The notes under the pieces are model-generated. The model saw only the letters and a list, made by a program, of their open reading frames with translations, searched no databases and had not been told where the DNA came from. Positions 20,719 to 30,558 of a stretch of DNA of 32,000 nt are shown here, in pieces. Position numbers and translations under genes: made by a program. The first letter of the stretch is position 1. Each line of letters starts with the position of its first letter. Source of the stretch: Geotalea uraniireducens Rf4 (lineage in GTDB: Bacteria; Desulfobacterota; Desulfuromonadia; Geobacterales; Geobacteraceae); assembly GCF_000016745.1 (NCBI RefSeq), contig NC_009483.1, positions 1,470,001-1,502,000 on the forward strand, written 5' to 3'.

Positions 20719-20855
20719 CCACTAATGACACGAATAAACACGAATGTTTTTAACCCCTTGTGAAGTCTTGAGTAGTCACCGATCTGGTGAGTGTCTTCTT
20801 CATCACAAGAGCTTGTATATTCGTGCACATTCGTGAAAATTCGTGGTTAAAATGT
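20719..20855. repeat. Word-built palindromic element A (CACGAAT words at 10-nt phasing)
   Basis: Left arm: CACTAAT 20720, CACGAAT 20729 and 20739. Right arm: ATTCGTG 20819, 20829 and 20839. Nested inner stems are CTTGTGAAG (20757-20765) / CTTCAtcaCAAG (20798-20809), with central TCACC-gatct-GGTGA (20776-20790). It begins right after the sucA TAG. Confidence 0.9.
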
Positions 20856-20916
20856 TTTTTTAGGTTCAAGAATTTCTGAATCGCACAGATTTTAGTTCAA
20901 CCGATGGAGTAATCCC

Positions 20917-22158
20917 ATGGAAATAAAAATACCGGCGGTCGGCGAATCCGTGTTCGAGGCGCTCGTCGCCAAGTGGCTCAAAACGGACGGCGAACTGGTA
21001 AAGAAGGACGAGCCGCTCTGCGAGATCGAGACCGACAAGATCACCCTGGAGATCAATGCGGAGGCGGCCGGCGTTCTTTCCATCAGGGTGAAGGCCGGGG
21101 AAACGGTCAAGATCGGCACGGTGATCGGCGCCATCGATGAACAGGGAGTGCCGGAAGGTGCGGTAGCCCCCGGCGTGGAACCTGCTGCCAAACCCGAATT
21201 CCAGCCGGTGACGCCGCAGCCGCCCCTTTCGCCGGCGGTGCGCAAGATGGCCCAGGAAAAGGGGCTAAAACCGGAAACGATCCTGGGGAGCGGCAAGGGG
21301 GGGCGGATAACGGTGGATGACCTGTTAAAGGCTGGGATCGGGGATCTGGGAACGGGGATCGGGGATCGGGAAAAGCTGCCAATGGCCGGTCCCGTCGTTG
21401 AGCAGCCTTCTCTCTTTGGGCCTGCTGCAGAGCCTCTTCCCACCCAAGCCGGCGAAGAGGGACGGATAACCCGCAAGCCGATGACCCCGATCCGTAAAAG
21501 GATTGCAGAGCGGCTTCTGGCAGTGCGGCAGCAGACCGCCATGCTCACTACCTTCAACGAAGCGGACATGGGAAGGATCATTGCCCTGCGCAAGAACCAC
21601 AACGAGCGCTTCATGCTCCGGCACGGCGTGGCGCTCGGGTTCATGCCGTTCTTCGTCAAGGCCTGCATCGACGCGCTCAAGGCGTTTCCCATAGTCAATG
21701 CCCGTATCGACGGTGATGATATCGTCTACCAGCATTTTTACGACATCGGCATCGCCATCGGCGGGGAGAAGGGGTTGGTGGTGCCGATCATCCGCGATGC
21801 GGACCGGCGCAATCTTGCGGAGATCGAAAAGGCCATCCAGGTCTATGTGGAGCGGGTCAAGATCAATCAGCTCAACCTTGCGGACATTACCGGCGGGACT
21901 TTCACCATCAGCAACGGCGGGGTTTACGGCTCAATGCTCAGCACGCCGATCATCAACCCGCCCCAGAGCGGGGTTCTCGGCATGCATGCCATCCAGGAGA
22001 GGCCGGTGGCCTTGGACGGCAAGGTGGTGATTCGGCCGATGATGTACCTGGCCCTCTCCTACGACCACCGGATCATCGACGGCCGCGAGGCGGTGGGGTT
22101 TCTCAAAAAGATCAAAGAGTGTATCGAAGACCCGGAGGAGATGCTGTTGGAGGGGTAA
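20917..22158 (+). CDS. sucB: Dihydrolipoyllysine-residue succinyltransferase (E2 of 2-oxoglutarate dehydrogenase)
   Basis: Lipoyl domain [13 protein letters not shown]3/E1-binding domain [32 protein letters not shown], catalytic [14 protein letters not shown]. Confidence 0.93.
21334..21368 (+). repeat. Five-unit GGGATCG-type heptamer array / canonical G-quadruplex motif inside the sucB linker
   Basis: GGGATCG GGGATCT GGGAACG GGGATCG GGGATCG, counted directly. It encodes [11 protein letters not shown] between the binding domain and the catalytic domain. Six G3-4 tracts are separated by loops of 3-4 nt. Confidence 0.9.
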
Positions 22159-22178
22159 ACCTATTTTCGTTTCCATGA

Positions 22179-22207
22179 TTGATTGTTGCTTAATATGGTG
22201 TTAAATT
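22179..22207 (+). promoter_or_regulatory. Candidate promoter of the Phd/ParE cassette
   Basis: TTGATT (22179-22184), a 17-nt spacer, then TAAATT (22202-22207), in an AT-rich 84-nt gap. Confidence 0.4.
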
Positions 22208-22242
22208 AAATGCTAAATTTGACACCAAAGGAGAATGGATCA

Positions 22243-22527
22243 ATGCCTGTCAATCTTGCGGAAGATATCCGCTCTGTCACCGACTTGAAGCGCAACACGC
22301 GGGAAATTCTCGACCAGATACACAAAACCGGAAGGCCGGTGATTCTCACGGTCAACGGCAGAGCCGACTCGGTGATTTTGGACGCCAAGGTGTTTGAAAA
22401 GTACCAGAAGGCAGCCAATATGGCGAAGATGCTGGCTCCAGCTGAAGAACAAGTGGCCGGCGGGAAAACAAGACCAATGAAGGAATTTCTGAAAGAATTC
22501 AAAAATGACCGCAAAATTTCAGGTTGA
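22243..22527 (+). CDS. Phd/YefM-family antitoxin
   Basis: SVTDLKRNTREILDQIHKTGRPVILTVNGRADSVILDAKVFE is the Phd/YefM N-terminal fold pattern. Start at ATG 22243, with AAAGGAG upstream; the ORF-track start is 22210. Confidence 0.8.
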   Translation: MPVNLAEDIRSVTDLKRNTREILDQIHKTGRPVILTVNGRADSVILDAKVFEKYQKAANMAKMLAPAEEQVAGGKTRPMKEFLKEFKNDRKISG

Positions 22528-22810
22528 AATAACACCGATAGCGGAAGCGGACATTGAGGATATCTGGACATTCATCGCTGAAGACAGTCCTGAAGCTGCC
22601 ACTGCATTCATTCTGGAGCTGGAAAGCCAGCTGACAACCCTGGAATCATTTCCGGAAAGGTGCCCGCTGGTCCCGGAGAATGAGATCCTGAGCACCCGCT
22701 TTCGTCATCTTATCTATGGCAACTATCGCACCATTTTTCGCATTGCCGGCAGGACGGTCTATGTCCTCCGGGTCATTCACGGGTCGCGGTTGCTGGAGCT
22801 TTTTGAGTGA
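22505..22810 (+). CDS. RelE/ParE-family toxin
   Basis: EADIEDIWTFIAEDSPEAATAFILELESQLTTLESFPERCP...YGNYRTIFRIAGRTVYVLRVIHGSR is the ParE-type pattern. It overlaps the antitoxin gene by 23 nt. Confidence 0.85.
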   Translation: MTAKFQVEITPIAEADIEDIWTFIAEDSPEAATAFILELESQLTTLESFPERCPLVPENEILSTRFRHLIYGNYRTIFRIAGRTVYVLRVIHGSRLLELFE

Positions 22811-28767: not shown

Positions 28768-28773
28768 TACAGA

Positions 28774-29056
28774 TTTTGCCACAGAGCCACAGAGACACGG
28801 AGGAAAGGCGCAATCTGAGGCCGTTGAACCGCAAATAACGCCTAAAACGCCAGGGACGCGAAGAAAGGCAAAACAAAATTCAAAACCTGATGGGACGCAG
28901 AAAAATCGGAAAAGGCCGATAAAACTTAAAACCAGAACCCCAAAATTACTTTTTAAGGTTTTAAAATCCGCTTTTTCTGATTTTTCCGCCTTTTCTGCGT
29001 TCTATTGGTTTAAGGTGTTCTCCGTGCCTCTGTGTCTCTGTGTCTCTGTGGCAGAA
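28774..29056. repeat. Word-built palindromic element C (CAC[A/G]GAG words, 8-nt phasing)
   Basis: Left arm: CCACAGAG 28779, CCACAGAG 28787, ACACGGAG 28795. Right arm: CTCCGTGC 29020, CTCTGTGT 29028 and 29036, CTCTGTGG 29044. The inner stem is ACGCAGAAAA (28895-28904) / TTTTCTGCGT (28991-29000). Confidence 0.9.
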
Positions 29057-29069
29057 GTGAGGTTTAGAA

Positions 29070-30329
29070 ATGTCTACTGAAATCACCATGCCGAAGCTTT
29101 CCGACACCATGACCGAAGGGCGGCTCATCGCCTGGAAGAAGTCGGTTGGCGATTGGGTGGAGCGGGGCGACATCATTGCCGAGGTGGAAACCGACAAGGC
29201 GAACATGGAGCTTGAGGCGTTCAGCGCCGGTGTGTTGCTGGAGATCCGGGTGAAGTCGGGCGAAATGGTGCCCGTAGGTACTGTGATCGGCATTGTCGGC
29301 GATGCGGGCGAAAAGGTGGCCGAGGGGGTGGGCGCGCAACCGGCGCAGGCAGCGGCGGAAACCAGGCAACCACCCACTGCGGAGCCCTCTCCTGCTGAGG
29401 CGGCAGTCGGCGTTGTTCCAGAGCGGATCATGGAACCGCCGGAAGAGACGGCGGCAGCGGCGTCCATCGCTGAGGGGGGGGAGAAGGCTTCTCCCCTGGT
29501 GCGCCGTCTGGCACGGGAGAAAGGGATCGACCTGGCGCAGGTGACAGCCAGCGGGCCGGAAGGGAGAATCCTCCAGGAGGACCTGGAACGATACCAGGAG
29601 GCACGAGGCGCAAGGAGCGAGGAGCGAGGCGAGGGTGAAAAAGCTCTTGTTTCCGCCGGGGCAATCCAGCCCCTCTCGCGGATGCGGGCGGCGATAGCCC
29701 GGACGGTCAGTGATGCGTGGCAGAGCATTCCTCACTTCACGGTGACCGTGGCCATCGACATGGGGGAGGCTGAGAACGTTTACCGGGAGCTGAAGGGGGC
29801 CGGCGCGATGGTTTCCCTGAACGACGTCATCATCAAGGCTGCGGCCATGGTTTTACAGAAGTTTCCCCTGGCGAACGCCTCCTTTGCCGCAGACGGCATC
29901 GTTCTACACGATGAGGTGAATATCGGCTTTGCCGTCAGCCTGGACGACGGCCTGCTGGTGCCGGTCATCAAGGGATGCGGGGGGCTTTCCCTCATGGAGA
30001 TCGCTGCCCGGAGCCGGGAGCTGATCGAACGGGCGCGCGGCGGGACCATAGCCGAGGCGGACATAAGCGGTGGCACCTTCTCCGTTTCCAACCTGGGGAT
30101 GTTCGGCGTGGAGGAATTTTCGGCGATCATCCACCCGCCGCAGGGGGCGATCCTGGCTGTCGGGGCGGTACAGGACGAGGCTGTGGTCAAGGGTGGGCAG
30201 GTAGTTGCGGCCAGGGTCATGCGGGCCACCCTTTCCGCCGACCACCGCCTCATAGACGGTGCCTATGCGGCGCGGTTCATGGCTGAACTGAAGAGGGTGC
30301 TGGAAAACCCGGTGGCGATGCTGGTTTGA
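29070..30329 (+). CDS. Dihydrolipoamide acyltransferase E2 (single lipoyl domain, PDH type)
   Basis: Lipoyl domain AEVETDKANMELEA, binding domain SPLVRRLAREKGIDLAQVTASGPEGRILQEDL, catalytic LSADHRLIDGAYAA. Confidence 0.92.
   Translation: MSTEITMPKLSDTMTEGRLIAWKKSVGDWVERGDIIAEVETDKANMELEAFSAGVLLEIRVKSGEMVPVGTVIGIVGDAGEKVAEGVGAQPAQAAAETRQPPTAEPSPAEAAVGVVPERIMEPPEETAAAASIAEGGEKASPLVRRLAREKGIDLAQVTASGPEGRILQEDLERYQEARGARSEERGEGEKALVSAGAIQPLSRMRAAIARTVSDAWQSIPHFTVTVAIDMGEAENVYRELKGAGAMVSLNDVIIKAAAMVLQKFPLANASFAADGIVLHDEVNIGFAVSLDDGLLVPVIKGCGGLSLMEIAARSRELIERARGGTIAEADISGGTFSVSNLGMFGVEEFSAIIHPPQGAILAVGAVQDEAVVKGGQVVAARVMRATLSADHRLIDGAYAARFMAELKRVLENPVAMLV
29601..29635 (+). repeat. Weak 7-nt periodic tract in the E2 linker (GAGCGAG x2 with degenerate flanks)
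   Basis: GCACGAG GCGCAAG GAGCGAG GAGCGAG GCGAGGG. Only the two central units are perfect. It encodes ARGARSEERGEG just after the subunit-binding domain. Confidence 0.4.
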
Positions 30330-30343
30330 AGATCCAAAGAGAG

Positions 30344-30538
30344 TTTTGCCACGGAGACACAGAGGCACGGAGAACACCTTAAAAACCGATGGGACGCAGA
30401 AAAGGCGGAAAAAACAGAAAAAACGGATTTTAAAACCTTAAAAGACTTTTGGGGTTCCGGTTTAATCCGCCTTTATCCCCCTTTTCCGATTGTTCTGCGT
30501 CCCTAAAAAGGTTTTGCCTTTCTCTGGTCTCCGTGGTG
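30344..30538. repeat. Word-built palindromic element D, a shorter copy of element C in inverted orientation
   Basis: Left arm: CCACGGAG 30349, ACACAGAG 30357, GCACGGAG 30365. Right arm: TCTCTGGT 30521, CTCCGTGG 30529. Perfect inner stem GGGACGCAGAA (30391-30401) / TTCTGCGTCCC (30493-30503). The plus strand of D aligns with the rc of C over about 130 nt (see findings). Confidence 0.9.
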
Positions 30539-30558
30539 AATTGGTGAGATTTCTATTT

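Follow-up and report, generated by a model that had tools for sequence, protein, structure and literature searches.

The dehydrogenase operon and its expanded junctions

The stretch of DNA analysed here (the window) comprises bases 1,470,001-1,502,000, i.e., 32,000 nucleotides, of the single 5,136,364-bp contig of Geotalea uraniireducens Rf4 (G000). It contains a dehydrogenase operon in which six of the junctions between genes are filled by palindromic repeats, and the nature and origin of these junction fillers are considered in the following. Pfam and NCBIfam profile matches served to identify the genes of the cluster, which on the plus strand are ordered sucA, sucB, phd, parE, lpdA, aconitate hydratase (acn), pdhA, pdhB, E2 and lipB. 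Their positions in the window are:

17929 or 18022 to 20718, plus strand: sucA
20917 to 22158, plus strand: sucB
22210 or 22243 to 22527, plus strand: phd (PF02604/PF05016 assigned to the phd/parE pair)
22505 to 22810, plus strand: parE (PF02604/PF05016 assigned to the phd/parE pair)
22210 to 22810, plus strand: the phd/parE toxin-antitoxin cassette as a whole (PF02604, PF05016), not a repeat
22857 to 24275, plus strand: lpdA
24420 to 26369, plus strand: aconitate hydratase, 649 aa
26550 to 27527, plus strand: pdhA
27781 to 28767, plus strand: pdhB
29070 to 30329, plus strand: E2
30559 to 31203, plus strand: lipB

Start codons were chosen by support from relatives, of which 31 genomes (coded G001 and so on, with loci coded L018 and so on) were compared; in this manner, acn was taken to begin at 24420 or 24435, pdhB at 27781 and lipB at 30559. 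With these starts, the gaps amount to 198 nt (sucA/sucB), 144-159 nt (lpdA/acn), 180 nt (acn/pdhA), 253 nt (pdhA/pdhB), 302 nt (pdhB/E2) and 229 nt (E2/lipB), bearing out the sizes given in an earlier note on this DNA. Long inverted repeats were found in all six gaps, as that note had described, and the predicted fold energies of the gaps range from -49 to -117 kcal/mol. For five of the six fillers, further genomic copies were detected by blastn, while the sixth, comprising hairpins marked by GTAGGGGC, belongs to a family of 153 units recovered by motif search. The description of almost every junction as occupied was a little too broad: of the ten junctions counted between sucA and the gene that follows lipB, a repeat is present at six and absent from four (sucB/phd, phd/parE, parE/lpdA and lipB/next).

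Every filler abuts or overlaps the stop codon of the gene upstream. All six start between -16 and +16 nt from that stop, in keeping with the proximity reported earlier, and the stop codon itself lies inside elements A, T and G. The fillers and one associated feature are:

20703 to 20864, plus strand: element A, a 162-nt MITE (miniature inverted-repeat transposable element) with termini CCCAAAAACGG...TTTTTTTAGG, its ends taken from an alignment of 26 copies and their flanks
20870 to 20879, plus strand: probable ancestral end of sucA, as read from the sequence
24275 to 24396, plus strand: element T, a 122-nt imperfect hairpin (inverted repeat I5), its first base being the final one of the lpdA TGA (24273-75)
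26366 to 26514, plus strand: element G, GTAG-type repetitive extragenic palindromes (REPs; inverted repeat I3)
27529 to 27756, plus strand: element B, a composite CGCAAAG-word hairpin (inverted repeats I1, I6, I12 and I15)
28774 to 29056, plus strand: element C, a CACRGAG shell (inverted repeats I2, I4 and I9)
30344 to 30540, plus strand: element D, a second CACRGAG shell (inverted repeats I7 and I10)

At least five families are represented among the six fillers, and the claim of different structured repeats at the junctions holds. The core ACCTTAAAACC, proposed to be shared by several of them, did not survive examination. Three one-mismatch matches are present in the window, as compared to 0.37 expected, yet genome-wide the word occurs no more often than composition-matched shuffled words, and its occurrences are parts of GAACC-type arms or of A-rich loops. 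It was thus rejected as a common feature of the fillers.

Repeat families represented among the fillers

Element A is a genuine transposed MITE. Once its 26 copies and their flanks had been aligned, its borders moved outward, to CCCAAAAACGG...TTTTTATAGG. Its terminal inverted repeats read CCCAAAAA.../...TTTTTAGG, each arm contains three CACGAAT words, and the element is bounded by a 5-bp target duplication, TTCAA, at 20698-20702 and 20865-20869. A perfect, A/T-rich duplication of 5 bp flanks at least 12 of the 19 full-length copies of the family (8 recognized by script, 4 by eye). The family occupies some 41 loci at 82-97% identity, all of them intergenic and non-coding, with 27 at same-strand, 4-5 at convergent and 10 at divergent junctions, and with 15 copies oriented as transcription and 10 opposed to it. 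Family A is accordingly a generalist in terms of junction class. Full-length copies were encountered in this genome only, none being present among the 31 relatives, and the family is a recent burst specific to this genome. No parent insertion sequence (IS) was detected in this genome or in the 31 relatives; the blastn matches of A in this genome are all short elements, and no pair of ends enclosed a gene.

The insertion of element A affected the gene upstream. In G001, the orthologous sucA/sucB site is empty of the element, with homology ending at TTCAACCC / ...GCGTTCAACCC. Because homology stops before the end of sucA, the final four codons and the TAG stop (20716-18) of this gene, all of which lie inside element A, are element sequence, and the protein now ends ..AFNPKTA*. 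Without element A and one copy of TTCAA, the reading frame would run ..ttc aag aat ttc TGA; the original protein thus probably ended ..AFKNF*, with the TGA at 20877-79.

The REPs and bacterial interspersed mosaic elements (BIMEs) of Escherichia coli provide the comparison system for element G. The three hairpins noted earlier at acn/pdhA proved to be three GTAG-type REPs. In the first, the GTAGGGGC sequence at 26366 contains the TAG stop of the aconitase gene (26367-69). The second and third form an inverted doublet (26402-26427 forward and 26463-26488 reverse, each with GTAGGGGCG followed by a stem), itself enclosed by an outer stem pairing ~26376-91 with 26499-514. Motif searching returned 153 units of GTAGGGG plus stem genome-wide, many in doublets; 122 are intergenic, at 108 same-strand, 8 convergent and 6 divergent junctions, with 58 oriented as transcription and 50 opposed to it. 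A TAG stop is given to the neighboring gene by 24 of the 153 units. The aconitase stop also lies in GTAG in G004, G018, G012 and G007, directly followed there by GGG and a GC-rich tract.

GTAG REPs are known to donate TAG stops, and a GTAG family is listed for G. uraniireducens (Di Nocera et al., 2013, PMC3733652). Element G resembles the GTAG REPs, BIMEs and REPINs described in that work in its GTAG tag, its GC-rich imperfect palindrome of ~25 nt, its occurrence as singles and inverted doublets, its high copy number, its extragenic position and its role as TAG donor. It differs from REP systems in that no cognate REP-associated tyrosine transposase (RAYT) gene flanked by GTAGGGG units was found, and only one of the six fillers is of the REP type. 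Indeed, save for one IS200-like copy, none of 14 PF01797 matches in the genome has GTAGGGG units within 1.5 kb, and the repeat flanking a RAYT-like gene near 5090250 is of a different GTAG type. Y1/RAYT transposases were also considered, and rejected, as movers of the junction families in general, since none of the 14 homologues is flanked by these families, most being ~325 aa long and accompanied by other word repeats and GGGGTCAGG ends. Some nine of the homologues are paralogous ~325-aa proteins with an N-terminal Y1-transposase domain (1123498-1124490, 945580-946569, 3503223-3504203 and about six more). Most have tandem word repeats upstream and GGGGTCAGG-like words, as inverted ends, on both sides, and they seem to represent a further system of word repeats with no relation to the junction families.

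Elements B, C and D are hairpins with arms of short tandem words. No target duplication was evident by eye for any of the three. The main arms of element B (27617-48 and 27714-45) are closed by the clamp AAACCTTGAACCGC / GCGGTTCAATGGTT, and the element ends 14 nt 5' of the GGAGG Shine-Dalgarno sequence of pdhB. All 19 loci of family B are at same-strand junctions, mostly with <80 nt remaining on either side, and copies are oriented 10:9 relative to transcription. Short same-strand junctions account for 16 of 18 family B junctions (as they do for all six T copies), an enrichment that persists even against a junction-count null.

The shell arms of element C (28774-808 and 29022-56) enclose a B-like fragment (28825-79) and an inner hairpin with GGGACGCAGAAAA arms (28885-29010). 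The inner hairpin of element D (30384-30503) is that of C on the opposite strand, with 86% identity to its reverse complement; the E2/lipB element had rightly been described as the inverted version of that at pdhB/E2. This inner hairpin, the C/D cargo, is at same-strand junctions at 12 of 12 loci, with orientations of 4:8. CACRGAG shells number ~11 genome-wide, all intergenic, some being bare hairpins of 61-67 nt. Others enclose B-type elements (two other shells), the C/D cargo or the MITE Chunjie with its own 9-bp duplication. Since Chunjie and B-type elements are found inside shells, shell loops are demonstrable insertion targets, i.e., landing pads. The Chunjie-bearing shell (3902648-3903014 of the genome) holds the MITE, with duplication AGATTTATT, nested in its loop; a sister shell 20 kb away (3922848-3922985) is empty. 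A GxxExxY cassette, considered as kin of the junction repeats, was dismissed, as its arms consist of GGGAT-type words, unlike junction arms.

Chunjie itself was described as a MITE of G. uraniireducens Rf4 lying in a pst operon that remained intact (Chen, Zhou, Li, Xu, 2008, Genetics 179:2291, as related in PMC3184786 and PMC10969869). It was recovered here by comparing two copies of the pst operon. The recovered sequence measures ~233 nt and folds at -128 kcal/mol; its inverted end, CAGCGTTGTCCGGTTTGGTTT, is 21 nt long, and its duplication, AAAAAAAGC, 9 bp. The two pst regions (~1763-1775 kb and 2958-2970 kb) are inverted copies that differ by Chunjie, with identities of 99.97% across 3.1 kb and 98.7% across another 1.8 kb. 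Chunjie is absent from the window, its 64 genomic matches lying elsewhere, and none of the fillers is Chunjie. It is an intergenic palindromic MITE of the same genome, located, like the fillers, within an operon and predicted to form very stable hairpins. Chunjie, however, is 178-235 nt long with a 9-bp duplication, whereas element A is 162 nt long with a 5-bp duplication and arms built of words.

Element T belongs to an older family of hairpins that are strand-specific and, without exception, abut a stop codon. The genome has six copies, all of them at same-strand junctions, oriented with the genes and beginning between -8 and +4 nt relative to the upstream stop. The others lie near 22465, 292611, 862888, 2260770 and 4267723, and three were placed, namely, at argF/argG, hypC/hypD and ahbD-like/hemE. 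Gap sequences revealed orthologues at lpdA/acn in G001, G004, G005 and G012 and a second copy at sucB/lpdA in G004, G005 and G021. In an alignment of 12 copies, compensatory changes were seen in 11 of 21 predicted pairs, and in 11 of the 12 the better fold is that of the strand complementary to the mRNA, the margin being ~10 kcal/mol in most. Given that T copies share one orientation and that the antisense strand folds better, the relevant fold may be that of an antisense RNA or of the bottom strand of the DNA. Aklujkar et al. (2009, PMC2700814) described a short-RNA-element family of intergenic hairpins with a central GRCGTAGCGCTGCTACGCC palindrome, found, for example, near arginine and lysine genes. 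The T orthologue of G012 (L018) carries a GCGGCGTAGCGCTGCTACGCC core with GRCGTAGCGCTGCTACGCC, which places T in that family; one copy of the present genome lies at argF/argG. Within this genome, the centres of the copies either read GCGGCGTAC..GTACGCC or are diverged.

Orthologous operons and genome-wide distribution

The order of the eight genes sucA-sucB-lpdA-acn-pdhA-pdhB-E2-lipB is conserved through the family. Because for each junction there is at least one relative in which it measures between -8 and 30 nt, the compact state is ancestral, and this genome is among the most expanded. The closest relative, G001 (aconitase 92% identical), is without three of the fillers found here, having a sucA/sucB gap of 62 nt, an acn/pdhA gap of 1 nt and a different element at pdhA/pdhB. 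The comparison with orthologous clusters proposed in the earlier note thus revealed empty or differently filled junctions at these three sites, and turnover of the fillers is fast. In G005, junctions are nearly compact (-1, 83, 25 and 20 nt), and G013 and G015 have overlapping junctions. As G005 and G013 are mostly compact, the fillers are dispensable.

Among the relatives examined, synteny tables place phd/parE between sucB and lpdA in this genome only, the same junction holding a T-type hairpin in G004, G005 and G021. In G013 (L022), a 3.1-kb insertion separates acn from pdhA, with all other junctions being compact.

CACRGAG shells recur in the operon across at least six genera (G001, G006, G012, G017, G018, G020 and G021). 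At pdhB/E2, a shell is present in G001, G017, G018, G012 and G020, each time with different cargo, and further shells are found at pdhA/pdhB, lpdA/acn or E2/lipB in G017, G018, G020, G021 and G006. Across the cluster, the CACRGAG arm pattern is matched 33 times, as compared to 1.7 expected from whole-genome densities. The family is patchy: of the five other same-genus genomes searched, four yielded no match (two of these being <85% complete), but it was detected in other families of the phylum and in 10 of 151 genomes sampled across it. In G020, the pdhA/pdhB shell (L027, 11111-11396) surrounds a 65-aa open reading frame with a weak match to a topoisomerase-type C4 zinc ribbon (E = 0.004, below the family cut-off), and decayed 3' ends of this frame are seen at pdhA/pdhB in two other genera (L019 and L021).

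To place the cluster in its genomic context, junctions were called with a crude codon-usage gene finder that reproduces the genes of the window, yielding 4,101 genes and 4,100 junctions; a junction was scored as occupied when at least 30 nt matched at least three other intergenic loci. By these crude calls, coding sequence makes up 81.7% of the genome and 78.5% of adjacent gene pairs are same-strand. Overall, 18.7% of junctions are occupied (same-strand, 16.9%; convergent, 25.4%; divergent, 25.2%), and per intergenic base the three classes have, in the same order, repeat densities of 0.127, 0.134 and 0.109. The cluster scores five of ten junctions, a value equalled by 217 of 4,091 sliding windows (top 5.3%), as compared to 104 upon shuffling. 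The crowding of the cluster is therefore real but not exceptional. Raw fold energy was abandoned as a measure of crowding, since it scales with gap length and is hence uninformative. Occupied junctions tend to be neighbors, with 27% being occupied when the previous junction is occupied and 17% otherwise. Clustering of multicopy repeats was likewise noted in Geobacter bemidjiensis, where multicopy intergenic sequences are present in 12% of intergenic regions (Aklujkar et al., PMC2996986).

The comparison of same-strand with convergent junctions that the earlier note had called for gave a divided answer. A same-strand preference was seen for the REPs (108/8/6 for same-strand, convergent and divergent junctions), for word-armed hairpins found de novo by TRF (81/8/6, with 29 more inside called genes), for family B (19 of 19), for the C/D cargo (12 of 12) and for T (6 of 6), but overall repeat density is equal across the classes. 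Three further hairpin families, GTTCGAG, GGATCGA and CCGACCA, are nearly confined to same-strand junctions (32 of 33, 13 of 14 and 15 of 18, respectively).

Origin and possible role of the fillers

The fillers belong to known kinds of repeat, namely, MITEs, GTAG REPs and the multicopy palindromes of Geobacter, classes that have already been published for Geobacter. The multicopy nucleotide sequences catalogued by Aklujkar et al. (2009, PMC2700814; 2010, PMC2996986) include intergenic families that are palindromic and composed of tandem heptamers, non-randomly clustered and sometimes located within genes. Those catalogues cover G. metallireducens and G. bemidjiensis and are without mechanism, target duplications, orientation statistics or a cross-genus view of one operon. 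Judging from the relatives, the fillers appear to have been inserted independently and recently enough for sister species to differ. They are probably the outcome of six separate insertions of selfish dispersed palindromic repeats, drawn from at least five families and tolerated in a once-compact operon, with any cutting by RNase III being a side effect.

According to this proposal, six insertions would have landed in the sucA-sucB-lpdA-acn-pdhA-pdhB-E2-lipB operon when its junctions were compact, the CACRGAG shells of C and D would serve as landing pads in whose loops other elements insert, and the elements would persist because intercistronic spacers tolerate them. The fillers are without an intrinsic terminator, leave the downstream Shine-Dalgarno sequence free and supply a new stop where the end of a gene was clipped. 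When transcribed, they should form stems of 30-100 bp, natural substrates of RNase III, and the enzyme would probably cut the message into segments of differing stability, a consequence that would not amount to a ratio-setting device.

This part of the proposal draws on other systems. Correia MITEs form co-transcribed hairpins that are cut by RNase III, and ERIC of Yersinia is co-transcribed and exposes an RNase E site, with transcript levels being altered in either case (PMC10969869). The mechanism suggested for the fillers is by analogy with Correia/NEMIS of Neisseria and ERIC of Yersinia, with which they share no sequence. The long predicted stems of the fillers and the RNase III gene present in the genome are prerequisites of cleavage of the Correia type.

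Several findings weigh against insertion followed by mere tolerance. The hairpin-class families favor same-strand junctions, with some depletion at convergent junctions, the class at which neutral tolerance should peak. T has a strict orientation, is conserved in several species at the orthologous site and displays compensatory changes. Finally, with this genome left aside, 26 matches to the CACRGAG arm pattern remain in the cluster as compared to 1.6 expected, a ~20-fold excess that neutral tolerance alone does not predict. The matches are clumped (~4 per element) and related genomes are non-independent, such that Poisson values overstate the case, yet the excess is still large. The distribution suggests that either old shells were kept far longer than neutral sequence or the same junctions were hit repeatedly. 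It is possible, if on balance doubtful, that the operon is a cross-genus hotspot in Geobacterales, at which shells are kept or re-acquired at the same intercistronic sites while the inner cargo is swapped. Were this so, selection for double-stranded RNA processing sites between these cistrons, or site-specific homing by some enzyme, would be implied.

An explanation that we consider unlikely holds that the fillers are adaptive intercistronic RNA elements which, like E. coli REPs/BIMEs or RNase III sites, uncouple the cistrons and set the amounts of E1, E2, E3 and aconitase made from one transcript. When REPs, word-armed hairpins, B, the C/D cargo and T are pooled by hand, ~89% are same-strand, above the 78.5% share of such junctions, and the concentration of B and T at short same-strand junctions points in the same direction. 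So do the shells recurring in the operons of seven relatives, the oriented, conserved and covarying T, the REP at the aconitase stop, which appears to be common to at least five genomes, and the availability of RNase III. By contrast, four of five families display no orientation bias, orientation being random for A, B, the C/D cargo and the REPs. The sense strand has no folding advantage either, with the mean sense-minus-antisense fold energy of repeat-bearing same-strand junctions being -2.76 kcal/mol, as compared to -2.30 kcal/mol in repeat-free controls, and the T and B elements of the cluster fold better as antisense than as sense strands. Plus-strand terminator-like sites in the junctions are at chance level (14 vs. 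15.3 expected), promoter-like sites show no clear excess (8 vs. 4.1 expected), and none of the fillers matches Rfam at the gathering threshold; sub-threshold hits to plant microRNA precursors, returned by an E-value search, were set aside as an artefact of long hairpins. Moreover, the insertion of element A, which gave sucA a new end, is recent, the nearly compact junctions of G005 and the overlapping ones of G013 and G015 argue that the elements are dispensable, and overall density does not differ between junction classes.

The orientation, folding, terminator and Rfam tests hence offer no support for hairpins shaped by selection on the mRNA. Of the REP/BIME interpretation advanced in the earlier note, the presence of different palindromic repeats at cistron junctions stands, while the protection of upstream message is unsupported by the orientation, sense-strand folding and density tests, and the setting of stoichiometry has no positive support.

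Distinctly improbable, too, is a targeting mechanism, whereby a putative enzyme inserts hairpins into existing hairpins or loops or beside stop codons, such that occupied junctions attract more elements and the same sites are hit in different lineages. This would account for the central position of cargo in shells, for the four different cargos of the pdhB/E2 shell across genera, for the Chunjie copy that lies inside a shell with its own target duplication and for the correlation of neighboring junctions (27% vs. 17%). The patchiness of CACRGAG among close relatives, together with its presence in other families of the phylum, fits horizontal spread, and insertion of ISs into REPs is a precedent cited in PMC3733652. 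On the other side, no enzyme was linked to the elements, with the 14 Y1-transposase homologues being flanked by other repeats, no target duplication or consensus could be defined for B, C or D, and the operon junctions are without an obvious common sequence feature.

A role at the DNA level, with the word arrays acting as putative sites for nucleoid or regulatory proteins that organize local supercoiling or transcription, is highly improbable, for although the tandem 7-10 nt words of the arms, some phased at ~10 nt, a lack of strand bias suited to double-stranded DNA function and the IHF/HU suggested for G. metallireducens repeats (Aklujkar et al., PMC2700814) are in its favor, many unrelated words would require many proteins, and divergent promoter regions, at which sites of this kind should be active, are avoided by the elements.

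Insertion and tolerance, the explanation preferred here, portrays one operon that absorbed ~1.2 kb of mobile hairpins and keeps working, and elements that rewrite last codons, supply stops, nest in each other and turn over between sister species. If the recurrence of shells reflects neither selection nor homing, the operon would be an ordinary case of repeat families that existing Geobacter catalogues already contain. If it reflects one or the other, the operon would offer a tractable system for addressing how REP- and MITE-like hairpins function inside operons and what mobilizes word-armed hairpins without target duplication or known enzyme. The parts that merit follow-up are the possible hotspot of shells across genera and the T family with its strand specificity, neither of which fits simple tolerance.

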